From Bacteroidaceae bacterium (GTDB lineage: Bacteria > Bacteroidota > Bacteroidia > Bacteroidales > Bacteroidaceae): 64,000 nucleotides of DNA. The stretch lies in contig JAIKYE010000041.1 in the NCBI GenBank assembly GCA_024683455.1, positions 47,605 to 111,604 of the forward strand, in the 5' to 3' direction. Position numbers and translations under genes: made by a program. The notes below the pieces were generated by a model. That model saw nothing but the letters and a program-made list of their open reading frames with translations, had not been told where the DNA came from and made no database searches. Positions 4,614-61,112 of this stretch are shown piece by piece (within the stretch, counting starts at the first letter, position 1; each line of letters opens with the position of its first letter).

Positions 4614-4621
4614 TAACTTTG
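4614..4621 (+). promoter_or_regulatory. Bacteroidetes sigma-A -7 box (TAnnTTTG)
   Basis: TAACTTTG lies 28 nt upstream of the ATG at 4649. Confidence 0.55.
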
Positions 4622-4648
4622 CACTGTAATCATATAAATTATATCGAT

Positions 4649-5728: not shown

Positions 5729-5779
5729 TTGTTATTTATTATTGAAAATTGAGTATTGAACATATTATTCTATAGAGAT

Positions 5780-7373: not shown

Positions 7374-7405
7374 AGAAGAGTAGAGGAGTTGTCCTCTACT
7401 CTTCT
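7374..7405. terminator. bidirectional hairpin terminator between convergent genes
   Basis: A perfect 14-bp stem AGAAGAGTAGAGGA/TCCTCTACTCTTCT has a GTTG loop. The T-rich run is on the minus-strand side. It overlaps the dNK stop codon. Confidence 0.7.
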
Positions 7406-8016
7406 GGGAATAAGCCATAAAGTTTGGCATCTATCTGATCAGTTATAAACTGAAAATCCTTAGGGTTCGCTTCAAATTTTAGATTATCGCCATCTATAAT
7501 CAGAAGCGGACCTTTATACGTCTTTATCCATTCCTCATATCTGTCGTTCAGACCTTTCAAGTAATCTATACGGATGCTTTGTTCGTAATCTCTGCCTCTT
7601 TTGCTTATCTGGGCTATTAGATTAGGGATGGTGCTGCGGATGTATATCATCAGGTCAGGGAGACCCACCAAAGACATCATCAGGTCAAAGAGGTCCGTGT
7701 AGTTATTGAAGTCTCTGTCGCTCATATAGCCCTGTTCATGCAGGTTGGGCGCAAAGATGCGTGCATCCTCAAAGATTGTCCTGTCCTGTATAATGGTGTC
7801 CTTGCTCTTGGATATCTCCACCACATCGCGAAAACGTTTGTTCAGAAAGTAAACCTGCAGGTTAAAACTCCACCTGTTCATGTCCTTATAGAAATCCTCT
7901 AAGTATGGATTAACCTCTACAGGCTCGTATCTGGGAGTCCATCCGTACCTTTTCACCAACATCTTGGTAAGTGTTGTCTTTCCGCAACCGATATTTCCTG
8001 CTATAGCTATATGCAT
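7396..8016 (-). CDS. deoxynucleoside kinase
   Basis: 206 aa. P-loop GNIGCGKTT and dNK motifs DRTIFED and RGRDYEQ are present. Confidence 0.85.
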   Translation of the reverse strand: MHIAIAGNIGCGKTTLTKMLVKRYGWTPRYEPVEVNPYLEDFYKDMNRWSFNLQVYFLNKRFRDVVEISKSKDTIIQDRTIFEDARIFAPNLHEQGYMSDRDFNNYTDLFDLMMSLVGLPDLMIYIRSTIPNLIAQISKRGRDYEQSIRIDYLKGLNDRYEEWIKTYKGPLLIIDGDNLKFEANPKDFQFITDQIDAKLYGLFPEE

Positions 8017-8042
8017 ATTCTTTTTGTTTACTGTTTACTTCT

Positions 8043-8675
8043 TCACTTTTCACTCTCCAATGGGAAGAGTCCATAGAGTAGGCTGTCTATCTTTTGTGTG
8101 ATAGAAGTGAGATCCTGTTTGTTGTTTAGATAGTCCATATCATCAACCTCTATGGTCAGCACCTTTCCCTTGTATTTGTTGTATATGAAATCCTCATACA
8201 AATCATTCAATCCTTTCAGGTAATCTATCTGAATCGACTGCTCGTAATCTCTGCCTCGCTTCTGTATATTGCTTACCAAGTGAGGAATGCTGGCGCGAAG
8301 GTAGATCATCAAGTCGGGATACTTTACCATATCGGTCATCAGCTCAAAGAGTTCCATGTAGGCTTGGTAGTCCCTATCCGACAGATGTCCCTGTTTATAG
8401 TTGTTGGCTACAAAGACGTGTACACCCTCATATATGGTCCTGTCTTGAATGATTGTCTTTTTTGACTGCTCTATTTCCAGTATGTTTCTGAATCGCTCCT
8501 TTAGGAAAAACACTTCCATATTGAAGGACCATCGCCTTATGTCGCCATAATAATCTTGCAGATAAGGGTTATTGGTCACAGCTTCGTATTGTGGAGTCCA
8601 TCCGTAATGTTCGGCCAGCAATTCTGTTAGCGTGGTCTTGCCGCTGCCTATATTACCGGCAACGGCTATGTGCAT
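8043..8675 (-). CDS. deoxynucleoside kinase (tandem paralogue)
   Basis: The ATG at 8675 gives MHIAVAGNIGSGKTT, parallel to the neighbour. The ORF track start at 8708 is a GTG. Motifs DRTIYEG and RGRDYEQ are present. Confidence 0.85.
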   Translation of the reverse strand: MHIAVAGNIGSGKTTLTELLAEHYGWTPQYEAVTNNPYLQDYYGDIRRWSFNMEVFFLKERFRNILEIEQSKKTIIQDRTIYEGVHVFVANNYKQGHLSDRDYQAYMELFELMTDMVKYPDLMIYLRASIPHLVSNIQKRGRDYEQSIQIDYLKGLNDLYEDFIYNKYKGKVLTIEVDDMDYLNNKQDLTSITQKIDSLLYGLFPLESEK

Positions 8676-8715
8676 TTTTTCTGTATTTATATTTGGTAAT
8701 TCGCTCACTTAATCG

Positions 8716-42835: not shown

Positions 42836-45361
42836 ATGATTTATCCACAACACTTTGAGCAGAAGATAGGCTTCACGGAGATACGCCAGTTGCTGAACAA
42901 CCATTGTCTGAGCAGCTTAGGACGCAGCCGTGTGGAGCAGATGACGTTCCTGACTAAACATGAGGAGATACGTCTGCTGCATCAGCAGGTTCAAGAGTTC
43001 CGTCGTATTATGGCTGAGGTAACCGAACTGCCCGAGCAGGATTTCTTCGACCTCCGCCCTTCCATCCAACGCATACGCATTGAAGGCGTACACCTGGATG
43101 AAAAGGAACTGCACGACCTGTACCTATCGCTCCGCACCCTGCATTCGTGTGTGTCAATCCTGCGCAACGAGGAAGAGGGCGAGCGTCCCATCTACCCTGC
43201 CCTACAAAAACTGACAGAGGGGGTTTTCACCTTTCACTCCATCACTAAACGGGCTGAACAGATATTGGACCGCTATGGTAGGATTAGTGACAATGCAACA
43301 CCAGAACTGGCCAGCATCAGACATGAACTTCGCAAGCATGAGGGAAGCGTAAGCCGTACACTTAACAAGATACTGAAAGCAGCACAAGCCGAAGGATGGG
43401 TGGACAAGGATGTGGTTCCTACGCTCAGAGACGGACGACTGGTCATACCTGCCGCTCCAGCCATGAAGCGAAAGCTGAAGGGTATCATACACGATGAAAG
43501 TTCAACGGGTAAGACTGTCTTCATAGAACCTGCTGAAGTAGTAGAGGTAAATAATCACATCCGTGAGTTGGAAGCCGAGGAAAAACGCGAGGTTATCCGT
43601 ATCTTAAAGGACTTCACCGAACTATTACGTCCCAACATCCCCGAGCTGGTACGCGGCTACGAGTTTCTGGCCGACGTAGAGTTTGTTCGCGCCAAAGCCC
43701 ATCTGGCAGACCAGATAGGCGGTGTATCACCTCAGATAGAGAAGAATCCGCTTATCGACTGGACCCTCGCCCAACACCCCCTGTTGGCGCTCGCCCTAAA
43801 GAAACAAGGCAAGAAGGTGGTTCCCCTCGAGATAGAGTTGAACAAGAAACAACGCATACTGGTGATCAGCGGACCTAATGCAGGCGGCAAGAGTGTGTGC
43901 CTGAAGACAGTGGGTCTGCTGCAATATATGCTACAATGTGGACTGGCCGTACCCATGGGCGAGAACTCGAAGTGTGGTATCTTTAAGGATATCTTTATTG
44001 ATATTGGCGACGAACAGAGCATAGAGGATGACTTGAGTACCTATAGCAGTCATCTGCTGAATATGAAGAATATGATGCGTGGCTGCAACCCACATAGTCT
44101 CTTGCTTATCGACGAGTTCGGAGGTGGAACAGAACCTACCATCGGCGGTGCAATAGCTGAGGCAGTACTGAAGTGCTTTGTGAAAGATGGTGCCTATGGC
44201 GTAATCACCACACACTATCAGAACCTGAAACATTTTGCAGAGGATACACCGGGTGTGGTGAATGGCGCTATGCTTTACGAACGCCATAGAATGGAAGCCC
44301 TATTCCAACTTCAGATTGGCAATCCTGGCAGTAGCTTCGCCGTAGAGATAGCTCGTAAAATAGGAATCTCAGAGGAAGTAATTGCCGATGCCACAGAAAT
44401 TGTGGGTAAGGATTATGTGAATGCTGACAAATATCTGTTGGATATCACGCGCGACAAGCGCTATTGGGAAGGTAAACGACAGACCATCCACCAGCAGGAG
44501 AAGCAGATGGAAAGCACCATAGATCGGTACGAGAAGGAAATGGCCGAATTGAAGGAGAAACGCAAGGAAATTATCAGAGAGGCCAAGAAACAAGCTGAAC
44601 AGATTCTGCAAGACAGTAACGCCATTGTAGAGAAGACCATCCGTGATATAAAGGAAGCACAAGCCGAGAAGGACCGCACCCGCAAGGCCCGTCAGGAGAT
44701 AGATGATTTCCGTGCCCGTATGGAGGAACAACTGAAGCACGAGCACGACGAGATGATAGAGCGCAAGATACGCCAGATTCAGGAGCGCCGTAAACGCAAA
44801 GAGGAAAGGAAGAAAAACACAGAACTCTCATCCGAAAACACGAAAACAACAGTATACATTAAGCCGACAACCGTTAACGACGAACAGTCAACATTCCAGA
44901 AAGGCGATACGGTTCGCCTGAAGGGGCAGACAACAGTTGGAGTGATAGAAGAAATAAACGGCAAGAAAGCCTCTATTGCATTTGGTATGGTACGCACAAG
45001 AGTGGAACTTTCACGATTGCAGCACGCCACACCCAAGGAAAAGGAAAATCACGCTGTACAGATAATTTCCTTCGTAAGCAAAGAAACACAAAACCAAGTT
45101 CGCGAGAAGCATCTGCATTTCCATCAAGAGATAGATGTCCGAGGCATGCGAGCCGAAGAAGCGCTACAGACCGTTACACATTTTATTGATGATGCTGTAT
45201 TGGTGGGCGCCAACCAAGTCCGTATTCTGCACGGAACAGGATCTGGCATACTACGACAACTGATTCGTCAGTACCTTCAGACGGTACCCAGCGTATCCTC
45301 TGCACATGATGAGCATGTGCAATTTGGTGGAGCGGGTATTACCGTAGTAGAACTATCCTAA
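42836..45361 (+). CDS. mutS2: endonuclease MutS2 (MutS domain plus C-terminal Smr domain)
   Basis: 841 aa. Walker A GPNAGGKS is present, followed by a charged coiled-coil and the Smr motif [11 protein letters not shown]. Confidence 0.95.
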
Positions 45362-47520
45362 ACCTCAACGGTAAAAGTATTTACTGCATCTATCACACGT
45401 TTAACCTGCTCGTCTGTAAAAACAGGAGAGATGGGAAGCGAGAGAATTTCCTTATGAATACGTTCAGAAATACGATACTTTTCATCGTTCCACTCCTTGT
45501 ATGCTTTCTGCAAATGAGGTGGTATGGGGTAATGAATAAACGTCTGTATGTCTTTATCTTTTAGATAGGCAGATAATTCATCACGCATTGAACATCTTAC
45601 AGGATATATGTGATAGACATTCTCTTCTGGATTCTTTGCAACAACGGGCTTAGTAATCAGTGGATTAACAATACCCTTGTCGTACATAGATGCAATCTCA
45701 CGCCTGCGTTCATTATCAACATCCAGAAAAGGAAGTTTGACACACAGGGCTGCAGCTTGTATTTCATCCATGCGGCTGTTATGTCCCTTGTATTCATTGA
45801 CATACTTCTCTGCACTTCCGTAATTGGCCATTGTACGAACAATACGAGCAAGTTCCTCGTCGTTGGTAGTCACGCATCCGGCATCGCCCAAAGCGCCCAG
45901 ATTTTTTCCAGGATAGAAACTGATTCCTGCAGCATCACAGAGGTTTCCAGCCATCTTACCCTTATATCGAGCACCATGTGCTTGTGCCACATCCTCTATC
46001 ACTTTCAGTCCATGCTTTTGGGCAATTGCATTGATAGCATCCATGTCACAAACACGTCCGTATAGATGAACAGGCAAGATGGCGCGGGTCTTTTCTGTAA
46101 TCAAGGGTTCTATAAGCTCAGCATCTATCAGATAGTCATCGATATGAGGTTCACATAGTACAGGCTTCATTCCTGCATATGTAACGGCCAAAATGGTAGC
46201 AATATAGGTGTTGGATGGTACGATTACCTCATCTTCATCCTGCCAGCCCAGTTTCTCCTTGTATGCAAGCAGTATGAGTGACAATGCCTCCAATCCATTA
46301 CCAACAGGAACACAATATTGGGCACCGCAATACTCTGAAAAGAGCTTTGAGAATCGTTCGTTTTCCTTACCTAACAAATACCATCCGGTACGGATAACAC
46401 GTGTTACCTCGCTGCTAAGTTCTGGTTCAAATCGTTCGTTTATCTGTTTCAGACTAAGGTACTTTATGGTCTTACTCTGCGTATTTCGAACATTACCCGT
46501 CATCTTATCTATTTGCGAGTTATGCAAATCCACCTCGTATGTGTCATAGCATACAGCCCTACCGCCAAAGCCTTCTTTCTGGAATATCAGTCCTTCGTTC
46601 AGGAACTTGCCGTCATTCTCGTTGCTAGTACCCATATCCAGATACTCCATCTGTTTATAACGTTCGTTTATCAAATGTTTAAACAGCAAATCCAAAGCAC
46701 CGTATTCCCTACCCTCGTCGCCTGAGGCTATGTATTGTACGTGCGCTACCTGTCGACTCTCAAAGATAACAGTACCTGCAACTATATGATCTTCGTGACG
46801 GACAACATAAACCTTAATATTCTTGGGAAACAAACGCATCAGAAGCAAAATCTCGTGATAAGAGTGAACTGGTTTACTGTTGTGGTGCGTCATTAGCACG
46901 TCCTCCAACAGGTTCCAGAACTCCAACAAGCCAGCCTCGTCATTTTCTATTACATGACCCAGATAGCATCCATGATCTACAGCCTTCTTTGCCTGTCGCA
47001 TACGCAGCGTACGCATCTTAAGCGTATTACGTTGGTTGATAGCTGTGCTTACAAGTCGTCGTTTTAACTGAGCACCAGCACGGAAAAGGGCATATAAGTC
47101 TTCATCACTGGGGATAGCACTATATATATAAGGTATAGGTTTGTAAAAGACCTTTACAGCCTGCATAAAGTCACGATAATAGCATAACACCTCCTGCATA
47201 ATAGAAATTACCTCCATCTGAGTCACCTCGGGCAACACGATAAGACCACCGTATGTAAGTCCCTGATGAGAATATACACATTTAGTATGTTCATCATAAT
47301 TTGCTGGGAAGACAGCAACAAGATCCTTGGTAGTCATATGACTCTCTTTATACTCATCATCCGGCGATACGCCATCATATATCAATAAAGAGCAATCAAA
47401 AAAGCGATCACTATGATAGTCCATAAAATTGCGCTGCAACAGGAATGTGCCGTTCTTGGAACTCTCAACAAACGCATCCCATGTATCTTTCCTATTAATA
47501 GAATAAGGTATAATCGTCAT
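45358..47520 (-). CDS. fusion protein: N-terminal FemABX/GNAT-like acyltransferase-fold domain plus C-terminal DegT/DnrJ/EryC1-type sugar aminotransferase
   Basis: 720 aa. The N-terminal ~340 aa end in [12 protein letters not shown], which resembles the FemABX/GNAT_6 motif GLxxFKxxFGG. The C-terminal ~370 aa carry DegT features including the PLP-lysine motif [16 protein letters not shown]. Confidence 0.75.
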
Positions 47521-47945
47521 TTTGCAGTCAATTCTTTAAATTCATTATAATCATGGATATAATCTTCTGCGCTGTATGGCTCAGATGCCAGACTAACGCA
47601 TGCGGCATCACGTGTAAAGTCATAAAGTTTGCACCACACCAAGGGGGGGATAAGAATTCCCACGTGAGAATCGTTCATCTCAAGAATAATTTTCTGCTCA
47701 CCGTCATCCACCTCCATTTTAAAGCTGCCTCCCAAAGGAAAGATTACCATAGAGCACGTTCTGTGCGCATGGTTTCCACGGCTCAACCCGTCTTTTATGT
47801 TATACGTCCAGAACACACGCTCAATTTTAAAGGGGATATGATTCCTGCATTCCCCAAAAGCCAGTGCTCCACGTTCGTCTGCAATAAGGGGAAGTTCTAT
47901 CAACTTACACCCTTTAGGCATCTTGAACTGTACGTTTGTATCCAT
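47517..47945 (-). CDS. FdtA/WxcM-like cupin (NDP-4-keto-6-deoxyhexose 3,4-ketoisomerase family)
   Basis: The ATG at 47945 (MDTNVQF) lies downstream of the promoter box at 47964..47971. The cupin pattern DERGALAF...RGNHAHR is present. Its stop overlaps the next gene's start as ATGA. Confidence 0.7.
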
Positions 47946-47963
47946 AGTTTCATTATTTTTATG

Positions 47964-47971
47964 CAAAGATA
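47964..47971 (-). promoter_or_regulatory. Bacteroidetes -7 box
   Basis: TATCTTTG on the minus strand lies upstream of the FdtA-like gene. Confidence 0.5.
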
Positions 47972-48096
47972 CGATTAAGTGAGAGGAATACAAAAAAAAA
48001 CATCATTTTTCAATCCCAAACATAAGTATCTTCTGGATTTTATTTCAAAAGTACAAAAAAAATTGCAAAGTACTTGTGATATTCGGAAAAAAGCTA

Positions 48097-48833: not shown

Positions 48834-50342
48834 ATGTTTAAAATCTTTGCTGGTAATCATCTTGTTGAGGCGTATCACCGCCGTAAGAAGGAAAAGCGGA
48901 ACAGCTGCCTCCTCTGCAAGGTAATGAAATTACTCATAGCTATTACTATGGGTATTACACTGTGGACTCTACCCACAGAAACTTTCGGAATAGAGGGTCT
49001 TACCCTTATAGAACAACGTGTAATTGCTCTTTTCTGCTTCGCTACCCTTATGTGGATAACAGAGGCTATCCCATCCTGGACTACCTCTGTGGCAATTATT
49101 GTAGTTCTATTGTTCACATGTAGCGATAGTGCACTGAAATTTTTCATCAACGATCCTGAAGATGTTTTGGGAACCGTTATCTCGCACAAAGCTATTATGG
49201 CCTGCTTTGCCAACCCTATCATCATGCTCTTTATTGGAGGATTCATTCTGGCTATTGCAGCAACAAAAAGTGGATTGGATGTCAAGTTGGCCAAGGTGTT
49301 ACTGAAACCTTTTGGAACGAAATCAGAAAATGTACTTCTGGGATTCCTATTGGTAACAGGTCTTTTTTCAATGTTCCTCAGCAACACCGCCACAGCGGCT
49401 ATGATGCTCACCTTCCTTGCACCTATCTTGAAGTCACTACCCGCTAATGGCAAGGGAAAGATTGCCCTCGCACTGGCTATTCCTATAGGTGCCAACATCG
49501 GAGGTATTGGAACACCTATCGGAACTCCTCCCAACTCCATTGCTTTATCTTACTTGGCCGATCCAAATGGCCTGAACATACAAATTGGATTCGGTCAATG
49601 GATGGCCTTCATGGTTCCCTTTGCATTGCTTCTGCTTTTCATAGCTTGGATTATTCTAAAGACTATGTTCCCCTTTACGCAGAAAAGAATTGAGCTTGAA
49701 ATAGAGGGTGAGACCAAGCATGACTGGCGATCAGTTGTAGTATATGTTACTTTCGCCATTACTGTTCTACTGTGGATGTTTGATAAGAAAACAGGCGTAA
49801 ACTCCAACGTAGTTGCCATGTTGCCCGTTGGTGTATTTTGTACATGCGGCATTATAACACGTAAGGATTTGGAAGAAATCAACTGGTCTGTCCTTTGGAT
49901 GGTTGCAGGTGGTTTCGCCTTGGGTCTTGCGCTTCAAGATAGCCACTTGGCAGAACACCTTATATCTGTTATACCTTTTGGTTCATGGTCACCCCTGCTG
50001 ATGATTTTAGGTAGCGGACTGCTGTGCTATGCTATGGCTAACTTCATTAGCCATACAGCTACAGCAAACTTGCTTTTCCCTATTCTGGCTCTTGCAGGCA
50101 TGTCAACAACAGAAACACTTGCAAACTACGGTGGTGTAAGTACCTTACTTATTGGTGTTGCCCTTGGCTCATCACTGGCAATGATACTACCCATTTCGAC
50201 ACCGCCTAATGCCTTGGCCCATGCCACAGGTTTGATTGAGCAGAAGCAGATGATGCGTGTAGGAATCATCATGGGTATAATAGGTCTTGTATTGGGCTAC
50301 ATCATGCTGATATTCATCGGTAAATCTGGTTTTGTTAGTTAA
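48834..50342 (+). CDS. DASS/SLC13-family anion:Na+ symporter (dicarboxylate or sulfate type)
   Basis: Hairpin-tip motifs FLSNTATAAMM with GTPPN, and FISHTATANLL with STPPN, are present across ~12 TM segments. The ATG at 48834 has an AU-rich upstream region. An internal ATG at 48924 (MKLLIAITMG) is an alternative start. Confidence 0.85.
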   Translation: MFKIFAGNHLVEAYHRRKKEKRNSCLLCKVMKLLIAITMGITLWTLPTETFGIEGLTLIEQRVIALFCFATLMWITEAIPSWTTSVAIIVVLLFTCSDSALKFFINDPEDVLGTVISHKAIMACFANPIIMLFIGGFILAIAATKSGLDVKLAKVLLKPFGTKSENVLLGFLLVTGLFSMFLSNTATAAMMLTFLAPILKSLPANGKGKIALALAIPIGANIGGIGTPIGTPPNSIALSYLADPNGLNIQIGFGQWMAFMVPFALLLLFIAWIILKTMFPFTQKRIELEIEGETKHDWRSVVVYVTFAITVLLWMFDKKTGVNSNVVAMLPVGVFCTCGIITRKDLEEINWSVLWMVAGGFALGLALQDSHLAEHLISVIPFGSWSPLLMILGSGLLCYAMANFISHTATANLLFPILALAGMSTTETLANYGGVSTLLIGVALGSSLAMILPISTPPNALAHATGLIEQKQMMRVGIIMGIIGLVLGYIMLIFIGKSGFVS

Positions 50343-50463: not shown

Positions 50464-51804
50464 CTACACAATTCCTTGTGCCATCATTGCTCTGGCAACC
50501 TTCATGAAGCCTGCAATGTTAGCCCCCTTAACATAATTAATGTAACCATCTGGTTCCGTGCCATACTCACAACATTGTTTGTGTATGCCGTGCATAATCT
50601 CATGCAGGCGCTTGTCAACGTCGGCAGCACTCCAAGAAAGGTGCATGGCATTTTGACTCATCTCCAAGCCACTGGTAGCCACACCGCCAGCATTTACAGC
50701 CTTGCCGGGGGCATATAGAATCTTATTCTTGAGGAACAGATCTATGGCATCAGGAGTACAGCCCATATTACTTATTTCACCTACGCAAAGCACTTTGTTG
50801 TCAATCAATTGTTGTGCATCTTCGGCATTCAACTCGTTCTGTGTAGCACAAGGCAGGGCAATATCCACCTTCACCTCCCAAGGTTTCTTGCCTGGATAGA
50901 AGGTTGCACCGGAGAACTCCTCTGCATATGGAGCAACAATATCGTTACCGCTCGCACGAAGCTCCAACATATAGTCTATCTTACTGCCATCAATTCCATT
51001 GGGGTCATAGATATAACCATCAGGACCACTGATTGTCACAACCTTAGCCCCCAACTGTGTTGCCTTAGTGGCAGCGCCCCATGCGACATTGCCAAATCCG
51101 CTAATAGCAACCGTCTTGCCAGCTAATTCTTGGCCGGCCGTCTCCAGCATCTCATTAACAAAGTACAATCCACCAAAACCCGTTGCTTCAGGACGAATCA
51201 ATGAGCCACCATAATCCAATCCTTTACCTGTGAGCACGCCACTGAAATCACGGGTCAGCTTCTTATACAGTCCGAACAAATAGCCAATCTCTCTGGCACC
51301 AACGCCGATATCACCGGCAGGAACGTCTATCTCAGGACCAATGTAACGGTACAATTCACTCATGAAAGCTTGGCAAAAACGTTCAATTTCGGCATCACTT
51401 TTTCCGCGTGGAGAGAAATCACTACCACCCTTTCCGCCACCCATTGGTAGTGTGGTAAGGGCATTCTTGAATGTCTGTTCAAATCCTAAGAACTTAAGGA
51501 TACTTAAGTTTACTGAAGCATGGAAACGCAATCCACCCTTATAAGGACCAATTGCGCTATTAAACTGAACACGGTAGCCGATGTTTACCTGCACCTGTCC
51601 CTTATCATCTACCCAAGGAACACGGAAGGTAATAATACGCTCGGGCTCCACCAGTCGTTCTAATAGTGCTTTACGTTCAAACTCTGGATGTTGGTCATAT
51701 ACATCTTTAATAAAAACCAACACCTCACGAACTGCTTGTAAGTATTCTCTTTCTCCAGGATGACGTCTTTCAAGACGTTGCATAAAATCATTAATATCCA
51801 ACAT
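50464..51804 (-). CDS. gdhA: NADP-specific glutamate dehydrogenase
   Basis: 446 aa. Motif PMGGGKGGSDF and the dinucleotide fold GFGNVAWG are present. Confidence 0.95.
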   Translation of the reverse strand: MLDINDFMQRLERRHPGEREYLQAVREVLVFIKDVYDQHPEFERKALLERLVEPERIITFRVPWVDDKGQVQVNIGYRVQFNSAIGPYKGGLRFHASVNLSILKFLGFEQTFKNALTTLPMGGGKGGSDFSPRGKSDAEIERFCQAFMSELYRYIGPEIDVPAGDIGVGAREIGYLFGLYKKLTRDFSGVLTGKGLDYGGSLIRPEATGFGGLYFVNEMLETAGQELAGKTVAISGFGNVAWGAATKATQLGAKVVTISGPDGYIYDPNGIDGSKIDYMLELRASGNDIVAPYAEEFSGATFYPGKKPWEVKVDIALPCATQNELNAEDAQQLIDNKVLCVGEISNMGCTPDAIDLFLKNKILYAPGKAVNAGGVATSGLEMSQNAMHLSWSAADVDKRLHEIMHGIHKQCCEYGTEPDGYINYVKGANIAGFMKVARAMMAQGIV

Positions 51805-52004
51805 GGTATATCTCGTTTTAGTTAATTAAAGAATCTAATGCAAATATATTAAACTTTCATTTCTTCGCAAAGGATTTTCCCCTAATATTTATCAACGAGC
51901 TATCATTTTGTAAAGTTACATGTGGCAATTTTAGGACTTTAGCGGCGTTTAAAGTAGCATTTTATCACTAAACAACAATCATATATACAATGATTATACA
52001 AATC

Positions 52005-53117
52005 TCACAGTTTCTGGTATCCCCAGAAATCTATAATATCCCCCCATGCATCGTTTACCATTTTCACAGTTCGAGAATCATATTTATACATGTTCTTTTT
52101 ATGTCCCTTTTTTAAATTCACATAAGATTCTATCACAAAGCGAGCTTCATCCCAACCAGGAATCTCCAGTTCATGGTAAATGCGCTCTGTAATCTCAAGG
52201 GCATTACGCTCAAACTCTTCAAACTTCACCTCGAACAAATTTCCATCAGGGATATATTTCTTCTGCTCCTGATAAGCATCGAACAACTCTCGGTATACAT
52301 ACAGGATGTTTTGCTCCATCTCCTCAACAGAAATGCTGTTTAACTCCAAAGGAGCACCCGTCTGGGTAAAGAAGGAACGGCAGCTTTCGAACACCGTGTA
52401 AGGGTTGCGGATGAGATAAATAAATTTGGCCTTAGGAAACATCTCCACCAATGTTTTTATTTTACCAGTATGAGGTGGATTTTTGCTTAGATACTGTGCA
52501 TCCTTAACGCCGTATCGGCTATTCCACATACTCACCTTTACAACCTTCATAAACTTATCTTTGAAGTCGGCAATCTCTTCTGGAGTTGCTTTCTTCATGG
52601 TCAGAAAGCGGTCACAATACTCTCTCATATTCTGCGGAAAGAACCAGAAATTGTAATAAGATGCGGGGCAGGTATTCAGAAGAGCGAACTCTTCCTCCTG
52701 TGGAAGATCAGGACTCAGCTCCATCTTATCTGTAGGTCTATTCTTAGGCATAAAAGTGCTAAAAATAGGCTTCAACAGCCATTGCATGGACATCATTAGG
52801 TGAGGAAATACTGTTTGATACGTTGTCGTATAGCCAAAATGAGAATCTTGAGCAAAAATATTATGGACAAAAGTCGTTCCGCTACGCCAATGTCCCAATA
52901 TAAAGACAGGGTCATGTTGCAGAGGGTCATTAGCCAATAGTTTCTGATATTTCCGATCCTGCAGGGGAGCAAAAAGACTAACCACTCTGCAGAGACATCG
53001 GGTTAGCAACATTTTGGAACGTTTATTTGGTGCTACATAACGACTATGCGTTACAGTCTTGAACGTTTTCCAGTCGGCTCCTACCAAAGTATTCACTGGT
53101 AAATCAGAAAAATTCAT
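52005..53117 (-). CDS. PAPS-dependent sulfotransferase family protein
   Basis: 370 aa. It has a 5'-phosphosulfate-binding loop HWRSGTTF and a 3'-phosphate-binding-like segment LIRNPYTVFES. It is the last gene of the cys operon. Confidence 0.75.
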   Translation of the reverse strand: MNFSDLPVNTLVGADWKTFKTVTHSRYVAPNKRSKMLLTRCLCRVVSLFAPLQDRKYQKLLANDPLQHDPVFILGHWRSGTTFVHNIFAQDSHFGYTTTYQTVFPHLMMSMQWLLKPIFSTFMPKNRPTDKMELSPDLPQEEEFALLNTCPASYYNFWFFPQNMREYCDRFLTMKKATPEEIADFKDKFMKVVKVSMWNSRYGVKDAQYLSKNPPHTGKIKTLVEMFPKAKFIYLIRNPYTVFESCRSFFTQTGAPLELNSISVEEMEQNILYVYRELFDAYQEQKKYIPDGNLFEVKFEEFERNALEITERIYHELEIPGWDEARFVIESYVNLKKGHKKNMYKYDSRTVKMVNDAWGDIIDFWGYQKL

Positions 53118-53164
53118 TTCTCAAGTTTGACATTATACATTTAACATAGGCATAAATCAACAAC

Positions 53165-54616
53165 CTAACGCCTAATATGAATCTCCAATCCCTGACGAGA
53201 AAGTTCTTTCACTGCTTTCTCTATTGAATCATAGTGCTCCTCTCCTATTCCAAGTTTCTTCAGGTCGAGCGTGGGAACATCTGCTTGGTTGATATCGTTC
53301 ATCTCATGCGAACGGATTATCATACCCACAGCAGAGGTGTTGTTTGTGATGGGATCGATGAGGATGAAGGCGCCAGTAGCCTTATTCTGCTTGTAGGCAT
53401 CGAAGAAGATTGTCTTGGCCGTGGTAATCCGGACGCAACCTATCTCGTTCAGTTTAAAGTCGGTGCCAAACGACAGCTTCATGGTATTGACGTCCACGCG
53501 GTAAAGAATCTCATCAATTGTGGCACGAGTAGTATTGGTGTTGTGCTTCAGAAAAAACTGCTTGCCGCGGTCCATAGGCTCCTCGTCCATCCATACGAGC
53601 ATAGTCTGGAAGTAGCGACCTATGTTCGGCAGGTTGTCGGGGCGGACAATCATCTCGCCACGACTGATATCAATTTCGTCCTCCAAGGTAACAGTTACAC
53701 TTTGGGGGCAGAAAGCGTAGGTAAGCTCACCTTCATAAGTGACAATGCTCTTTACGCGGCTTTTCTTCATGCTAGGCAGGGCAACAACCTCATCGCCTTT
53801 ATGGATTACGCCGCTGGCAATCTTTCCGCAGAAACCGCGGAAATCTAGGTTTGGACGCAGGACGTACTGAACAGGGAAACGGAAGTCTTGCATGTTGCGA
53901 TCGCGGTCGATTGGCACAGTCTCCAGAAATTGAAGCAATGACGAGCCCTGAAACCATGGCGTGCGATGACTCTTCTCCACCACATTGTCACCATCCAAGG
54001 CAGACAAGGGAATGCACGTTACATCCTCAATGCCCAACTGAGTGGTCAGTGTCAGGTATTCGTTCCTTATCTTTGTAAATACTTCCTCAGAGAAGTTAAC
54101 CAAATCCATTTTATTTACTGCCAGAACAATATGCTTGATTCCTAGGAGGGAAACCAAGAAAGAATGACGGCGCGTCTGCGTGATAACTCCAGAACGGGCA
54201 TCTACCAAGATGATAGCCAGATTAGCCGTACTGCCACCGGTAATCATATTACGTGTGTACTGTTCATGTCCCGGTGTATCAGCGATGATAAACTTACGCT
54301 GATTGGTAGAGAAATAGCGGTACGCCACATCAATGGTAATGCCTTCCTCGCGTTCGGCTTTCAAACCATCCAGCAAGAGGGCATAGTCTATCTGACCAGC
54401 TCCAGCATTTCCGATACGTCTAGAATCTCGCTCCAATGCTTGCAACTGATCTTCGTAAAGTTTCTTGCTATCAAAAAGAAGTCGGCCTATCAGTGTCGAT
54501 TTTCCATCATCAACAGAACCTGCTGTCAAAAGCCTAAGCAAATCCTTCTTCTCGTCGGCATCAAGATAAGCCTTTATATCTAATTTCTTGTCTTCCACGT
54601 TGAACCAAATTTTCAA
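53165..54616 (-). CDS. cysN: sulfate adenylyltransferase subunit 1 (GTPase)
   Basis: G-domain motifs [14 protein letters not shown] and NKMD are present. There is no in-frame ATG upstream of the G1 motif, so a TTG start at 54616 is assumed. Confidence 0.9.
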
Positions 54617-54633
54617 TTCACAATTTTTAACTA

Positions 54634-55545
54634 TTAAAAGTATCCCTCCCTTTTCTTTTGCTCCATGCTAGCTTCCTGATCGAAGTCAATTACTCGGGTT
54701 GTTCTCTCGCTCTTAGTTGTGGTCATCATCTCTTCCACAATCTCTTCAATAGTGGTTGCTTTAGACTCTACGGCACCCGTTAATGGCCAGCAGCCGAGCG
54801 TACGAAAACGAACCATGCGATTACGAATCTTGGGTATCAGCTCTTTGGGCAGACGATTGTCATCGGCCATGATAAGGTTACCATCAATCTCTACACAAGG
54901 ACGTTCCTTTGCATAATATAAGGGTACAATGGGAATATTCTCCAGACGGATATACTGCCAGATGTCTAGCTCAGTCCAATTACTCAGCGGAAAAACACGA
55001 ATACTCTCGCCTTTGTGAACTCTACTGTTGTAAATGTCCCATAGTTCTGGCCGTTGGTTCTTGGGATCCCACTGGTTAAACTGGTCGCGGAAACTGAAAA
55101 TACGCTCCTTGGCACGACTTTTCTCCTCATCCCTGCGAGCACCGCCAAAGGCTGCATCGAACTTATATTTGTTCAACGCATCCAATAGGGCTTTTGTCTT
55201 CATCAGATCGGTATGCACTTTACTTCCGTGCGTAAAGGGTCCCACTCCAGCATTGAATGCCTCCATATTGCTTTCAACTATCAGGTTCCAACCATGCTCT
55301 TTGGCATAACGATCACGAAACTCTATCATTTCACGAAACTTCCATTTAGAATCAATATGCATCAAAGGGAACGGAACCTTGCCTGGAGCAAAAGCTTTTT
55401 CGGCCAAACGCACCATTACACTTGAGTCTTTACCTATACTATAAAGCATGACAGGATTCTCAAACTCGGCAGCCACTTCACGAATGATATGAATGCTCTC
55501 AGCTTCTAGTTCCTGCAAATGCGACAGGCTGTATTCTATAGCCAT
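54634..55545 (-). CDS. cysD: sulfate adenylyltransferase subunit 2
   Basis: 303 aa. The PAPS-reductase-like fold motif YSIGKDSSV is present, and the C-terminal EQKKREGYF is typical of CysD. Confidence 0.95.
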
Positions 55546-55569
55546 AATTCAAAAAATATAAATCCGAAA

Positions 55570-56160
55570 TTAAAAACTATTCAGAATCATCATCACCACC
55601 CTATTTACAGATTCCTCTAACGCAAGGCGGCTGGTATCAATCTCCAATGCAGGGTTCTCTGGTATCTCGAAGGGTGCACTAATACCAGTAAAGTTTTTCA
55701 CCTCACCCATTCTAGCTCTAGCATATAGACCTTTAACATCACGACGCTCACATTCTTCAAGGGGAGTTGAGACAAAAACATCCTTAAAGTCCTCCTCGCC
55801 AATGATATTACGGGCTAACATTCGCAAATCGTTGGTAGGGCTGACAAAACAGGCAAGTGTTACAATCCCCGTCTGTACAAATAATTTTCCTATTTCTGCT
55901 ATCCTACGGATATTCTCCATTCTGTCTTCGGCAGAAAAACCGAGATTGCTATTGATGCCAGCTCTGATATTATCACCATCCAAAATCCTACAGAGTATGC
56001 CACGTTTGTGTAGTTCACGCTCAACCCCCATAGCAATGGTACTCTTGCCGCTTCCACTCAGGCCAGTGAACCAAACCATTAGGCCATGCTGGTGTAGAAG
56101 TTTCTCCTTATCAGAACGAGACATCATCTGATCATATATAGGATATATGTTTTCAGCCAT
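55570..56160 (-). CDS. cysC: adenylyl-sulfate (APS) kinase
   Basis: 196 aa. P-loop GLSGSGKST and LDGDNIR are present. Confidence 0.95.
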   Translation of the reverse strand: MAENIYPIYDQMMSRSDKEKLLHQHGLMVWFTGLSGSGKSTIAMGVERELHKRGILCRILDGDNIRAGINSNLGFSAEDRMENIRRIAEIGKLFVQTGIVTLACFVSPTNDLRMLARNIIGEEDFKDVFVSTPLEECERRDVKGLYARARMGEVKNFTGISAPFEIPENPALEIDTSRLALEESVNRVVMMILNSF

Positions 56161-56166
56161 AATTTA

Positions 56167-57747
56167 TTAACAATAAAACAGAGGTATCAAGAATACGCTC
56201 ATCAGGAATACTATGATATTAAGTGGGAGTCCCACCTTGACAAAGTCCTTAAACTTGTAGCCTCCGACGCCTTGCACAATCAGATTTGTCTGATACCCAA
56301 TAGGGGTGCTAAAGGCTGCACTGGCAGCAAAACAGATGCAAACAAAGAAAGGTGTCGGATCCATCCCCAATTTATTACTAATGGACACTGCCAATGGAAA
56401 TGCTAAAGCTGCGGCAGCATTGTTAGTGATTACCTCAGTAAAGATGTTGGTTATGACAAACAATGCCGATAACATAATGTAGATACCGTTCTCACTATGT
56501 CGGGCTTGCTCAGCCAAGGCAATAATGTAATCGCCAATATAATCTGCCAAACCACTATTTATCATTCCTTTACTAATACCAAAGGCACAGGCAATGGTAA
56601 TAAGAACGTCCCAAGAAATCAATTTGGTGTATTTACGAGGCGAAAACATCTTAGTCCATGCCATCAACACTGTGGTTATGGCAGCAAAAAAGAACATATC
56701 GAGCTTCACCTTCAATCCCCACTCCTGAACAAAAGGCAGTTCACCTACCGTAGCTCCTAATACCATTAGGGCTACCAGCACCAACGCAAAGTTTTTTTTA
56801 TGCATACTTAATTCTGGTTCTGCCCCAACCACGTTCAACATCCAAAATACACGACTCTCACCCCACGTGGGCATAAAAGTATCATCAGCTTCTAGAACAA
56901 GGGTATCATGCTTAGTAAGTGGTTCATTAACCCAGTCACCTGTCAGGAGCGTACCTCCTCGTTTAATACACTTCACATTGGCTCCATAATGACGATAAAA
57001 ATCAAACTCTCGCAACGTCTTTCCCAAACCAGGAAAACGAGTGCTTGGCATTGCCTCCACATATACAACACCTGAGTCTACGTTTTCTTCCTCCTCATTA
57101 AGCGCGGTCTCACGTTTATCTGGTAGCAAATAGCGGGATATCATTATTAAGTAAAACAGACCTGTCAATGCAATAAAGACTCCTACCTTAGAAAGTTCAA
57201 ACATACCCAATGTATGTCCATTCGTTACAATATTGGCTTCTATAGCATCGTCAATCAGTCCGTCTAAAACAAGATTGGTACTGGTTCCAATCAAAGTACA
57301 GACACCACCCAGGATGGTTGCATAACTTAAGGGGATAAGGAATTTTGTTGGAGGCATTTTCATCTTCTTAGCCCAGTTCTTAATCATGGGTCCAAAGATT
57401 ACTACCACAGGTGTATTATTCAAAAAGGCTGATATGAAAGATATCAGCGGAAGGAAATTCATTAATGCCTTGGTCAACGAAACATTCTTGGATGGTAACA
57501 TGTAATAGATAATACGTTCTAGAACACCACTTTTGCGGACTCCCTCGCTAACAAGATACAGCAGAGCCACCGTTATCATACCTTTACTACAGAAGCCCTC
57601 CAAAGCTTCCTTAGGCTGCAAGATTCCAACGCATAGGAGCGAAACAACAACCGAGAACAAAATTAGTCCCGGCCTCAACTTGTCTGTCATCAGTGCCCAT
57701 AGCATCAGCACAATGACACACGCCATAAAAATGATTTCAAATGACAT
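56167..57747 (-). CDS. SLC13/DASS-superfamily permease with two central TrkA-C (RCK_C) domains; candidate sulfate importer
   Basis: Two transporter halves flank a ~150-aa soluble insert (VEAMPSTRFPGLGKTLREF...TLVLEADD). The ATG at 57747 is the likely start, because the track start at 57786 is a TTG upstream of the promoter box. It is the first gene of the cys operon. Confidence 0.8.
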   Translation of the reverse strand: MSFEIIFMACVIVLMLWALMTDKLRPGLILFSVVVSLLCVGILQPKEALEGFCSKGMITVALLYLVSEGVRKSGVLERIIYYMLPSKNVSLTKALMNFLPLISFISAFLNNTPVVVIFGPMIKNWAKKMKMPPTKFLIPLSYATILGGVCTLIGTSTNLVLDGLIDDAIEANIVTNGHTLGMFELSKVGVFIALTGLFYLIMISRYLLPDKRETALNEEEENVDSGVVYVEAMPSTRFPGLGKTLREFDFYRHYGANVKCIKRGGTLLTGDWVNEPLTKHDTLVLEADDTFMPTWGESRVFWMLNVVGAEPELSMHKKNFALVLVALMVLGATVGELPFVQEWGLKVKLDMFFFAAITTVLMAWTKMFSPRKYTKLISWDVLITIACAFGISKGMINSGLADYIGDYIIALAEQARHSENGIYIMLSALFVITNIFTEVITNNAAAALAFPLAVSISNKLGMDPTPFFVCICFAASAAFSTPIGYQTNLIVQGVGGYKFKDFVKVGLPLNIIVFLMSVFLIPLFYC

Positions 57748-57755
57748 ATTGACGG

Positions 57756-57763
57756 CAAATTTA
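57756..57763 (-). promoter_or_regulatory. Bacteroidetes -7 box of the sulfation operon
   Basis: TAAATTTG on the minus strand has a TTTG about 20 nt further upstream. It sits only ~8 nt from the ATG at 57747, which implies a near-leaderless mRNA. Confidence 0.45.
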
Positions 57764-57794
57764 CGAAAAATCGAGAATAAGGCCAAATGAAATC

Positions 57795-57840
57795 AAAGAA
57801 AAAGTGGTATTTCCCAAACACAGAAGGGGAATACCACTTT
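57795..57840 (-). terminator. terminator of carB
   Basis: A ~15-bp stem AAAGTGGTATTCCCC/GGGAAATACCACTTT, read on the minus strand with one mismatch, is followed by TTCTTTGATTT. Confidence 0.7.
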
Positions 57841-57881
57841 CGAAAACTCAAAATTAATTCTGATATGCAAAGAGAAACTTA

Positions 57882-60800
57882 TTAATACTCGTTCCAGCTC
57901 TTGATGGCCAAATCATCTTGACTAAGTGTACAGAACGCTTCGATGAAGGCACTTGCCAAACGAGAGTTGGTAATTAGAGGAATGTTATGGTCGATGGCAC
58001 CACGACGAATCTTGTAGCCGTTTGTCAACTCACGCTCCGTATGATTCTTAGGAATGTTGACAACCAAATCAAACTTGTGATCCGCAATCATCTGCATTAC
58101 ATTTTCGCGACCGTTGTCATTATTCTCATCAGGCCAGTTTACAGCAATAGCCTTGGCACCGTTATCATTCAAGAATTTAGCAGTACCTTCGCTAGCATAG
58201 ATGGTATAGCCAGCCTTTGTTAACATACGAGCGCCATCCAGCAATCTAACTTTCTCCTTAGTCTCACCACTTGAAATCATGATGCCTTTATCTTTGCTTG
58301 GAATCTTATAACCTGTAGCGATGAGTGAGTTCATAAGAGCCTCTTCGAAAGTATCACCTAAGCAACCAACCTCACCAGTACTGCTCATATCTACGCCTAG
58401 AATTGGGTCTGTGTTTTGCAGACGATTGAAGCTGAACTGACTGGCCTTAACACCAATGCGGTCAATATCAAATGCACTCTTGTCAGGCTGTGTATAGGGA
58501 GCATCCAACATGATACGTGTTGCTGTATCAATGAAGTTGCGCTTTAACACCTTGCTAACGAAGGGGAACGAACGGCTTGCACGCAGGTTACACTCAATAA
58601 CCTTAACGTCACGTCCCTTAGCTAAATACTGGATATTGAAAGGTCCGCTGATGTTCAATTCCTTGGCAATAGCACGTGAAATCTTTTTTATTTGACGAGC
58701 TGTAGCAAAGCTGATCTGTTGGGCGGGGAATGTCATAGTAGCATCACCAGAGTGAACGCCAGCAAACTCAACGTGCTCGGAGATAGCATATTCAACAACC
58801 TCACCGCACTTGGCAACAGCATCAAACTCAATCTCGTTAGTCTCCTGCATGAACTGACTGATAACAACAGGATACTCCTTGCTAACCTCACTGGCAAGTT
58901 CCAAGAAGCGTTTCAACTCCTCGTCGTTGTGACATACGTTCATGGCAGCACCAGAGAGTACATAAGAAGGACGAACCAGAACGGGATAGCCAACTTCGTC
59001 AACAAACTTTTTAACATCGTCCATTGATGTCAAAGCACTCCACTTGGGCTGATCAATGCCCAGTTGGTCAAGCATTGCTGAGAACTTGTTTCGGTTCTCG
59101 GCACGGTCGATGCTGACGGGACTAGTACCCAAGATGGGCACACTCTGACGGTATAGCTTCATAGCCAGGTTGTTAGGAATCTGACCACCCACACTGACAA
59201 TTACGCCATTGGGATTCTCAAGATCAATTACGTCCATTACACGCTCGAATGACAACTCATCAAAGTACAGACGGTCACACATATCGTAGTCGGTACTTAC
59301 GGTCTCAGGGTTGTAGTTAATCATGATTGACTTGTAACCCAACTTGCGTGCAGTCTGAATAGCATTTACAGAACACCAGTCAAACTCAACACTCGAACCG
59401 ATACGATAAGCACCAGAACCTAATACAATTACGGATTTTTCATTCTTGTAGTAATTTACATCATATCCTTCAGTTGCGTAGGTCATGTAAAGATAGTTGG
59501 TCAGGTCGGGATGCTCGCTGGCAACGGTAGGAATACGCTTAACCGCAGGAAGAACACCTTCCTTGATACGGTGTTGACGTACAGCCAAATTCTCACGCTC
59601 CATATTACCGCTTGTAGGCTTCAACACGAAGCGTGCAATCTGAAAGTCAGAGAAGCCCAACATCTTAGCCTTCTTCAGTACATCTTTGGGAAGTTCCTCC
59701 AGTGTGTTGTAACCTTCCAGTACCTTTTTGTAATCTACAATGTTCTTCATGCGCTCGATGAACCAAGGATCAATCTTGGTCAACTCATTGATGCGCTCTA
59801 CAGTATAGCCTTCTTCCAAAGCCTGAGCAATAGCAAAGATGCGTAAGTCTGTGGGGTTGGCTAACTCCTCGTCAAGGTCAGTGAACTTAACGTGGTCATT
59901 ACCTACAAATCCGTGCATACCCTGACCTACCATACGCAGACCTTTCTGAATCATTTCCTCGAAACTGCGACCGATACTCATAATCTCGCCTACAGACTTC
60001 ATGCTGGAACCAATCTTACGACTTACACCGGCAAACTTGGTGAGGTCCCAACGAGGAATCTTACATATCATATAATCCAGTGAAGGAGCAACGTATGCTG
60101 AGTTTGTGGTACCCATCTCACCAATCTGGTCAAGGGTATAACCCAATGCTATCTTGGCAGCAACAAAAGCCAAGGGATAACCTGTAGCCTTAGAAGCCAA
60201 AGCAGAAGAACGGCTCAGACGCGCATTAATCTCAATAATGCGGTAGTCGTTGGTCTCTGCGTTGAAAGCAAACTGAATGTTGCACTCGCCAACGATGTTC
60301 AAGTGCTTAACACACTTGATAGTGATATCCTGCAACATCTTTACCTGCTCGTCGGTAAGTGAGCAAGTTGGAGCAACAACGATAGATTCACCTGTATGGA
60401 TACCCAGAGGATCGAAGTTCTCCATTGATGCTACTGTAAAGCAATGGTCATTAGCATCACGGATGCACTCAAACTCAATCTCTTTCCAACCCTTCAAGCA
60501 TTCTTCTACCAAAACTTGAGGTGCAAAAGTAAAGGCACTCTCAGCAATCTCACGGAAAGTCTTCTCATCAGGACAAACACCGCTGCCCAAACCACCAAGT
60601 GCATATGCAGAACGAATCATGATGGGATAGCCAATCTTACGTGCAGCAGCCACAGCAGCGTCCATTGTCTCACAAGCTTCAGATACGGGGACCTTAAGAT
60701 CAACCTTGTTCAGTTCCTTAACAAAGAGGTCACGATCCTCAGTATTCATGATAGCTTCAACCGAAGTACCCAATACCTGTACACCGTACTCCTTCAGCAC

Positions 60801-61112
60801 GCCACTCTGGTAAAGTGCAGTACCAACGTTCAAACCAGTCTGTCCGCCCCATGCCAGCATGATACCATCAGGACGCTCCTTTTTGATAATCTCAGTAATA
60901 AAATGAGGAGTGATGGGAAGGAAATATACCTTGTCAGCAATACCTTCGCTTGTCTGTATGGTTGCTACATTGGGATTTACCAGCACAGAGTAGATGCCCT
61001 CCTCTCTCAGTGCTTTCAATGCCTGGCTACCAGAGTAGTCAAACTCACCGGCCTGACCAATCTTCAATGCGCCAGAACCCAGTACAAGTACTTTCTTCAG
61101 TTTCAGTTTCAT
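57882..61112 (-). CDS. carB: carbamoyl-phosphate synthase large subunit
   Basis: 1076 aa. It has duplicated ATP-grasp halves, an oligomerisation domain and an MGS-like C-terminal domain. The N-terminal KKVLVLGSGALKIGQAGEFDYSG is the CarB hallmark. Confidence 0.97.
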   Translation of the reverse strand: MKLKLKKVLVLGSGALKIGQAGEFDYSGSQALKALREEGIYSVLVNPNVATIQTSEGIADKVYFLPITPHFITEIIKKERPDGIMLAWGGQTGLNVGTALYQSGVLKEYGVQVLGTSVEAIMNTEDRDLFVKELNKVDLKVPVSEACETMDAAVAAARKIGYPIMIRSAYALGGLGSGVCPDEKTFREIAESAFTFAPQVLVEECLKGWKEIEFECIRDANDHCFTVASMENFDPLGIHTGESIVVAPTCSLTDEQVKMLQDITIKCVKHLNIVGECNIQFAFNAETNDYRIIEINARLSRSSALASKATGYPLAFVAAKIALGYTLDQIGEMGTTNSAYVAPSLDYMICKIPRWDLTKFAGVSRKIGSSMKSVGEIMSIGRSFEEMIQKGLRMVGQGMHGFVGNDHVKFTDLDEELANPTDLRIFAIAQALEEGYTVERINELTKIDPWFIERMKNIVDYKKVLEGYNTLEELPKDVLKKAKMLGFSDFQIARFVLKPTSGNMERENLAVRQHRIKEGVLPAVKRIPTVASEHPDLTNYLYMTYATEGYDVNYYKNEKSVIVLGSGAYRIGSSVEFDWCSVNAIQTARKLGYKSIMINYNPETVSTDYDMCDRLYFDELSFERVMDVIDLENPNGVIVSVGGQIPNNLAMKLYRQSVPILGTSPVSIDRAENRNKFSAMLDQLGIDQPKWSALTSMDDVKKFVDEVGYPVLVRPSYVLSGAAMNVCHNDEELKRFLELASEVSKEYPVVISQFMQETNEIEFDAVAKCGEVVEYAISEHVEFAGVHSGDATMTFPAQQISFATARQIKKISRAIAKELNISGPFNIQYLAKGRDVKVIECNLRASRSFPFVSKVLKRNFIDTATRIMLDAPYTQPDKSAFDIDRIGVKASQFSFNRLQNTDPILGVDMSSTGEVGCLGDTFEEALMNSLIATGYKIPSKDKGIMISSGETKEKVRLLDGARMLTKAGYTIYASEGTAKFLNDNGAKAIAVNWPDENNDNGRENVMQMIADHKFDLVVNIPKNHTERELTNGYKIRRGAIDHNIPLITNSRLASAFIEAFCTLSQDDLAIKSWNEY

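Follow-up and report, generated by a model that had tools for sequence, protein, structure and literature searches.

We analysed a stretch of 64,000 nucleotides from a Bacteroidaceae bacterium (GenBank assembly GCA_024683455.1, contig JAIKYE010000041.1), which as a whole is referred to as the window, and focused on a gene cluster that a first-pass annotation of the sequence had described as a metabolite-sulfonation cassette. Five genes were located on the minus strand between positions 57747 and 52005 in the order permease, cysC, cysD, cysN and sulfotransferase (Table 1), and the open reading frame (ORF) coordinates reproduced exactly the co-directional arrangement and the gaps of 6, 24, 17 and 47 nt reported before. 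The rest of the window was ordinary chromosome, including glycogen metabolism genes, pheT, dnaB, mutS2, PPi-PFK, carB and gdhA.

Table 1. Genes and regulatory features of the cassette (window coordinates; APS, adenosine 5'-phosphosulfate; PAPS, 3'-phosphoadenosine 5'-phosphosulfate)
Feature	Position	Strand	Assignment and support
Permease	56167..57747	-	CitMHS / Na_sulph_symp, SLC13-like, ion-transporter superfamily; one degenerate cytoplasmic TrkA_C; counterpart of BT_0412
cysC, APS kinase (APS + ATP -> PAPS)	55570..56160	-	PF01583 2.8e-60; TIGR00455 218 bits, cutoff 139
cysD, ATP sulfurylase small subunit	54634..55545	-	TIGR02039 495 bits, cutoff 397
cysN, ATP sulfurylase GTPase subunit	53165..54616	-	NF003478 698 bits, cutoff 590
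PAPS-dependent sulfotransferase, 370 aa	52005..53117	-	Sulfotransfer_3 PF13469 5.4e-38; predicted orthologue of BtSULT / BT_0416
Bacteroidetes-type promoter, TTTG (-33) N20 TAAATTTG (-7)	57756..57787	-	Pattern search; -7 box kept in relatives
carB intrinsic terminator hairpin, then U-run	57800..57841	-	RNA fold -19.4 kcal/mol, z = -4.2

Related loci were collected by a GTDB scan, which yielded 80 species-level loci (L001-L080); B. thetaiotaomicron was not among them, and the B. fragilis locus was added as L081. Nearly all of the GTDB loci came from rumen or herbivore-gut Prevotellaceae metagenome-assembled genomes (MAGs), with a best identity of 80-81%, and the closest homologues were rumen and gut Prevotellaceae MAGs, in agreement with the earlier suggestion of a Prevotella-like organism. 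The cysN gene was located <400 nt 5' of the sulfotransferase gene in 71 of the 80 species loci, and of the 65 loci whose upstream sequence reached far enough, 46 had all five genes on a single strand. Two independent metagenome assemblies (ENA ERZ27257204 and ERZ27257203) carried a 99%-identical copy in the same gene neighbourhood. The genes inserted in or adjoining the cluster in other species were unrelated to sulfur: a DUF4011 helicase/nuclease gene, glutamine synthetase III upstream, and HU-HIG/BT4734-like mobile-element genes. The first of these encodes a 1284-aa protein with DUF4011, AAA_11-AAA_12 helicase and REase_MTES_1575 nuclease domains and is co-directional between cysD and cysN (L043:4471-8325); it was found in nine Prevotellaceae loci (L043, L044, L046, L047, L049, L055, L056, L057 and L064), and with 71-98% identity among the copies, the gene appears to be stably inherited inside the operon. 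A different context was seen in L072:9992-12747 (Prevotellamassilia timonensis) and L078:9992-12910, where the sulfotransferase gene is not beside cysDNC, so that the PAPS supply must be encoded elsewhere; a response-regulator/PglZ protein gene lies downstream, and priA or a fasciclin protein gene lies upstream.

Bacteroidetes-type promoters have the consensus TTTG-N(19-21)-TAnnTTTG. Upstream of the permease, TTTG was found at 57787-57784, followed by a 20-nt spacer and the -7 box TAAATTTG starting at 57763, the position at which the first-pass annotation had ended the cassette with its one promoter box. In the pattern search this was the single match to TTTG-N18-22-TAnnTTTG at or within the cassette. 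The window contained 13 matches compared to 1.6 expected, nearly all just 5' of genes and including the promoters of gdhA (51871-51841) and carB (61297-61267); the pattern is a usable promoter predictor for this genome. A TAnnTTTG box was located 8-9 nt 5' of the permease ATG in all four relatives whose alignments reached the ATG (L001, L002, L003 and L042) and was also found in L005, giving five out of five relatives compared. A sigma-70 promoter scan was uninformative for this phylum. Some listed ORF starts overlapped the promoter motif (e.g., GTG 21019 and TTG 57786) and were probably called too far upstream.

The promoter begins about 15 nt or less after the U-run of the carB terminator. 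None of 200 shuffled sequences folded as well as this hairpin (57841-57800), which five relatives retain, with G-C pairs replaced by A-U in a compensatory manner, and it sets the cassette apart from the upstream carB. An attenuator or riboswitch in the leader, formed by an upstream TAATTTTG (57856-57849) and the hairpin, was considered and ruled out, since the -33 element was wrongly spaced and the hairpin belongs to carB as its conserved terminator. An Rfam scan of 51500-58200 returned nothing relevant. Within the cassette, the 47-nt spacer between cysN and the sulfotransferase gene contained neither a TAnnTTTG box nor a promoter motif in the pattern search, and gdhA, 200 nt downstream of the sulfotransferase gene, carries its own promoter. 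Because the gaps are tiny and an internal promoter motif was not found, co-transcription of the five genes from one predicted promoter is well supported by the sequence.

The permease matched CitMHS (2e-58, 198 bits) and Na_sulph_symp (5e-16) in Pfam. It had been described with two TrkA-C domains, a claim that was not borne out: one sub-threshold TrkA_C match was found (E=0.12, residues 254-299), and the central soluble stretch of about 108 aa among ten hydrophobic segments leaves room for one such domain only. With 105.8 bits against a TIGR00785 cutoff of 198.6, the protein was below the DASS subfamily cutoff; by this score and the one TrkA_C match it does not belong to the YfbS-like paired-TrkA_C DASS/SLC13 type. 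It is better called an SLC13-like/CitMHS-family permease with one degenerate RCK_C domain and, from its context, is a presumed sulfate importer. The start may be ATG 57747 (526 aa) or ATG 57726 (519 aa). The former aligned with Met1 of the B. fragilis permease (59% identity) and is also the annotated start of the gene in an identical metagenomic contig, while the latter would leave a more typical 29-nt leader. TTG 57786 was rejected as a start, being located within the -33 box. The permease of the window was 90-91% identical to those of L004 and L042 and only 63-65% identical to those of L001-L003 and L005; carB was 97-98% identical in the five of the L001-L005/L042 loci extending that far. 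This dimorphism among close relatives suggests gene replacement by recombination. A second anion symporter (48834-50342, plus strand) is a genuine DASS member (TIGR00785 247 bits, cutoff 199), convergent with gdhA just 3' of the cassette, and would transport a dicarboxylate or sulfate; contig L083, 99% identical, has it too.

The assignments of cysC, cysD and cysN in the first-pass annotation were upheld by Pfam and NCBIfam matches, all above the cutoffs. CysN is not fused to CysC, as the bifunctional CysN/CysC model matched only at positions 8-437 of 632, and CysD was 85-98% identical across 65 related loci. By equivalog-level family assignment, CysDN together with CysC is predicted to be a complete PAPS synthesis pathway.

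The 370-aa protein had been taken for a sulfotransferase in an arrangement similar to that around BT_0416 of Bacteroides thetaiotaomicron. A search with Sulfotransfer_3 (PF13469) covered the whole profile, 1-216, with E=5.4e-38. BT_0416 was represented by the protein P0245, picked by its match to the BT_0416 pET28 cloning primers (Le et al. 2022, Supplementary Table 1, PMC9417993), which encode an (M)GLLEFNKLPINTL N-terminus and a DFALKQWNYNL-stop C-terminus (Le et al. 2022, PMC9417993). Four 368-aa proteins, P0245 among them and clustered with B. faecis, matched both primer-encoded ends exactly (14 aa at the N-terminus and 11 aa at the C-terminus). The window sulfotransferase demonstrated 57% identity and 73% positives to P0245 over 367 aa with one 4-residue gap, and was 58% identical to its counterparts in B. 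faecis and B. fragilis. Its closest database relatives were up to 99% identical, followed by 92% and then about 80%, some of them labelled 'sulfotransferase [Bacteroidaceae/Prevotellaceae bacterium]'. A further search, started from a Bacteroides-like homologue, recovered clusters that include proteins of B. faecis, B. ovatus, B. fragilis, Phocaeicola and Odoribacter. When 1.84 billion representatives clustered at 50% identity were searched exhaustively with HMMER, a single full-length representative at 71% stood for the entire Bacteroidales family, and the next full-length relatives were at or below 42%. When 119 Prevotellaceae-type and 119 Bacteroides-type sequences were compared, 122 of the 370 positions were near-invariant in both clades and only 7 (32, 87, 117, 136, 150, 209 and 222) were fixed-different between them. 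The full-length identity, the single tight cluster, the conservation across clades and the synteny argue from sequence that the 370-aa protein is a BT_0416 orthologue, not a mere family member, and the likeness to the BT_0416 cluster proposed in the first-pass annotation was confirmed by the end-to-end identity of 57-58%, the matching P0245 termini and the same gene order.

The synteny is with B. thetaiotaomicron BT_0412-BT_0416, which has the same five genes in the same order and an approximately 370-aa Sulfotransfer_3 enzyme (PMC9417993). In B. fragilis the order was cysQ (Inositol_P), permease (CitMHS, weak TrkA_C), cysC, cysD, cysN and sulfotransferase, matching the description of BT_0411-BT_0416 (PMC9417993), and the identities between the window and B. 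fragilis were 90% for cysD, 75% for cysN, 71% for cysC and 59% for the permease. The sulfotransferase also shares the N-terminal helical extension and the PAPS motifs of the BT_0416-type enzyme. The window locus differs from BT_0411-BT_0416 in having no linked cysQ, the accessory counterpart of BT_0411, and carB upstream instead. A tblastn search with B. fragilis CysQ detected none in the 64-kb window (best E=2.1), and among L001-L080, mostly Prevotellaceae or Bacteroidaceae MAGs, a linked cysQ was found only in an Odoribacter locus (L068). Since cysQ is accessory, its absence leaves the sulfotransferase assignment unaffected. The host also sets the locus apart, being a member of the Prevotellaceae with rumen MAGs as nearest relatives. 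The operon is a Prevotellaceae counterpart of the characterised BT_0412-BT_0416 steroid-sulfonation cluster; it is of a known kind and carries no new mechanism.

An AlphaFold2 model of the 370-aa protein had a mean predicted local distance difference test score (pLDDT) of 90.3 and a predicted template-modelling score of 0.89. In a Foldseek search of the PDB, the top 50 matches were all sulfotransferases or the sulfotransferase-fold retinol dehydratase (probability 1.00), led by Stf9 (2Z6V, template-modelling (TM) score 0.72) and Stf1 (2ZQ5, TM 0.66), then TPST1/2 and the CurM sulfotransferase, with the cytosolic steroid sulfotransferases (SULTs) much weaker. The PDB searches, by sequence and by fold, brought up no BtSULT structure. 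Both PAPS motifs quoted in the first-pass annotation were present, HWRSGTTF at residues 76-83 and LIRNPYTVFES at residues 235-245. In profile alignments, R78-T82 (R78-S79-G80-T81-T82) was placed on the 5'-phosphosulfate-binding (5'-PSB) loop, R237 and S245 on the 3'-phosphate-binding (3'-PB) strand-helix, and K212 (SKNPPH) was aligned to the Lys-containing CNKDPF segment of TPST1. R78-T82, K212, R237 and S245 did not vary among 42 sequences and were near-invariant among 239. The model is that of a predicted PAPS-sulfotransferase fold with 5'-PSB and 3'-PB motifs intact. Judged by conservation, H85, H106, E133, E141-143 and H216 are invariant candidate catalytic bases.

Stf9 and Stf1 were the sole PDB sequences at a significant E-value (3e-10 and 3e-9, respectively) and have the Sulfotransfer_3 fold in common with the 370-aa protein, including additional helices that surround the core; they differ in coming from another phylum, in an identity of only 14-16% and, as far as tested, in not being part of a cysDNC operon. 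Human SULT2A1 and SULT2B1b perform the same chemistry, PAPS-dependent sterol 3-O-sulfonation, on a P-loop-like fold, and their 3'-PB Arg-Ser spacing equals that of R237...S245. They differ in belonging to Sulfotransfer_1 and gave weak fold matches (TM 0.35-0.37, 13-14% identity), so this likeness reflects analogy or very distant homology rather than orthology. ErSULT of Eubacterium ramulus is likewise a gut bacterial PAPS-dependent enzyme, identified from sulfotransferase Pfams (PMC13449962). It is set apart by its description, the authors calling it non-homologous to BtSULT and reporting hydroxy fatty acid substrates (PMC13449962).

The sulfotransferase had a nonsynonymous divergence (dN) of 0.12-0.15 from the nearest relatives. 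Synonymous divergence (dS) was saturated against all GTDB relatives, and dN/dS was therefore not quantifiable. A small dN beside saturated synonymous sites points to purifying selection on the gene. In the same genome pairs (L001-L005), carB (57882-61112) demonstrated a synonymous divergence of about 0.9-1.5, compared to saturated or >1.3 for the cassette genes (52005-57747), which may be due to constrained codon usage in carB or to a separate history of the cassette.

We consider it probable that the locus is a single-promoter operon, belonging to a rumen or gut member of the Prevotellaceae, for sulfate uptake, PAPS synthesis and O-sulfonation of a lipophilic hydroxyl acceptor, with a sterol 3-hydroxyl as the likely acceptor, and the sequence indicates that the operon is probably functional. 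Transcription would start at TTTG-N20-TAAATTTG just past the carB terminator and probably span all five genes. The SLC13-like permease, judged by its context, would bring in sulfate, CysD/CysN would convert it to APS and CysC would convert APS to PAPS. The sulfotransferase would then move the sulfo group to the acceptor, the products being sterol-3-sulfates and 3'-phosphoadenosine 5'-phosphate (PAP). As the Bacteroides-type linked cysQ is missing here, the CysQ that would remove PAP must be encoded elsewhere. From the orthology with BT_0416 alone, the acceptor is most likely a 3-hydroxy sterol, and the likeliest target would be the 3-hydroxyl of flat A/B-ring sterols, e.g., phytosterols, cholesterol and 5-alpha stanols. 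Cholesterol sulfate formation by BT_0416 has been demonstrated in vitro, in E. coli and in gnotobiotic mice (PMC9417993); BtSULT is selective for steroids with a flat A/B ring, 5-alpha or 5-ene, and beta-sitosterol sulfate is a described microbial metabolite (PMC13449962). Phytosterols suggest themselves first, given that the relatives inhabit the guts of herbivores.

Several observations weigh against this interpretation. On the transcriptional side, a convincing terminator was not detected 3' of the sulfotransferase gene, where the fold was no better than that of shuffled sequences, and the single transcript is one that we infer from the layout of the genes. The -7 box is 8 nt from ATG 57747, implying either a nearly leaderless mRNA or translation from ATG 57726. 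In B. thetaiotaomicron, the lactose response of BT_0412 differed from that of BT_0416 (PMC9417993). On the side of the enzyme, a single catalytic base was not assignable, and the conserved T98-H106 stretch, into which we take the catalytic Glu99 of TPST2 to fall, contains no Glu. In the alignment with P0245, 43% of residues differed, including segments 107-135 and 145-175, and there was a 4-residue insertion after residue 200; these differences could change the acceptor pocket, and the acceptor is carried over to the Prevotellaceae homologues solely by orthology. The absence of cysH and cysIJ, considered below, covers these 64 kb only.

The same architecture could serve an acceptor shifted from that of BtSULT, such as plant triterpenoids, the aglycones of saponins, hydroxy fatty acids, a membrane lipid of the cell itself or a glycan, and the product would then be a sulfated compound not yet described. 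We regard such a shift as unlikely, although a number of points favour it. The residues that differ include the lower-confidence loops 110-140 (pLDDT 72-84), which are probably over the active site, and the nearest solved folds are those of the mycobacterial Stf9 and Stf1, not those of steroid SULTs. Most homologous loci are from herbivore rumen or gut MAGs, habitats with little cholesterol on offer. ErSULT, another gut Sulfotransfer_3 enzyme, sulfonates hydroxy fatty acids (PMC13449962). Against this, the 7 fixed-different positions are set beside 122 shared near-invariant ones that are spread across all predicted active-site segments, the family forms one tight cluster with a gap down to at most 42%, and phytosterols share the flat 5-ene ring system accepted by BtSULT (PMC13449962).

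A second alternative is that the permease and cysDNC carry out ordinary assimilatory sulfate activation for cysteine, with the sulfotransferase as an adjacent minor side-consumer of PAPS. The CysD, CysN and CysC families are the same as in assimilation, and the inspection was limited to 64 kb of the genome. In Pfam scans of non-overlapping ORFs of at least 150 aa, cysH, cysIJ, sir and cysQ were not found in the window; the sole PAPS_reduct match was CysD, and there was neither a NIR_SIR nor an Inositol_P match. These scans agree, within the 64 kb, with the earlier report of a window without cysH, cysIJ or sir. Members of Bacteroides and Prevotella as a rule depend on reduced sulfur and are not known to carry cysH and cysIJ. 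In the window the cassette was accompanied neither by a PAPS or APS reductase nor by a sulfite reductase, the sulfotransferase gene was next to cysN in most of the species loci, as given above, and the same Bacteroides cluster has been described as the PAPS supply for BT_0416 (PMC9417993, PMC13449962). Because of the fixed cysN-sulfotransferase linkage and the lack of reductases nearby, a purely assimilatory role is very unlikely. The proposal of the first-pass annotation that the PAPS is destined for sulfo-transfer is supported. That the genes are adjacent without forming a functional unit, or that the sulfotransferase is decaying, is hardly credible: a significant terminator is missing 3' of the gene and the adjacency is read from sequence, but the ORF is intact and full length with all motif residues invariant, the divergence pattern is that of strong purifying selection, and the 99%-identical copy has the same neighbours in both independent assemblies.

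Building on the sterol-sulfonation operon, the Prevotellaceae branch of BtSULT might be tuned to plant acceptors of the rumen and hindgut (phytosterols and triterpenoid or saponin aglycones), with the loss of cysQ and the permease allele swaps as adaptations of the PAPS supply; we offer this as a possible but doubtful extension. If the plant-acceptor proposal is true, the Prevotellaceae that abound in the rumen would account for much of the sulfated plant sterol that reaches the host, a contribution so far overlooked.

In our literature search, which did not cover the homologue survey of Yao et al. 2022, the cluster was described in Bacteroides and Parabacteroides only, and Prevotella or Prevotellaceae carriers were not mentioned. 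Public databases already label such proteins 'sulfotransferase'. Bacterial sterol sulfonation, described in 2022, alters host levels of cholesterol and cholesterol sulfate in mice (PMC9417993). The operon is intact, is under purifying selection and is widespread in Prevotellaceae, with many rumen MAGs among its carriers, and the cultured Prevotellamassilia timonensis has the sulfotransferase. These findings add taxa to be considered for sterol-sulfate production in Prevotella-dominated human guts and in livestock and provide concrete candidates for phytosterol sulfonation.

Other features of the window were recorded as well. On the minus strand at 45358-47993, an FdtA/WxcM-like isomerase gene is followed by one for a 720-aa fusion of a GNAT acetyltransferase and a DegT/DnrJ aminotransferase, which looks like a 3-acetamido-3,6-dideoxy-sugar nucleotide pathway. 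Two adjacent ORFs on the plus strand (4619-5728 and 5756-7354; 369 and 532 aa) had no Pfam match at E<=1e-5. A 969-aa protein encoded at 24525-27434 (minus strand) contains Golvesin_C, fibronectin type III and partial Amidase_3 domains, and the minus strand at 7396-8708 encodes two deoxynucleoside kinase paralogues in tandem (206 and 221 aa).

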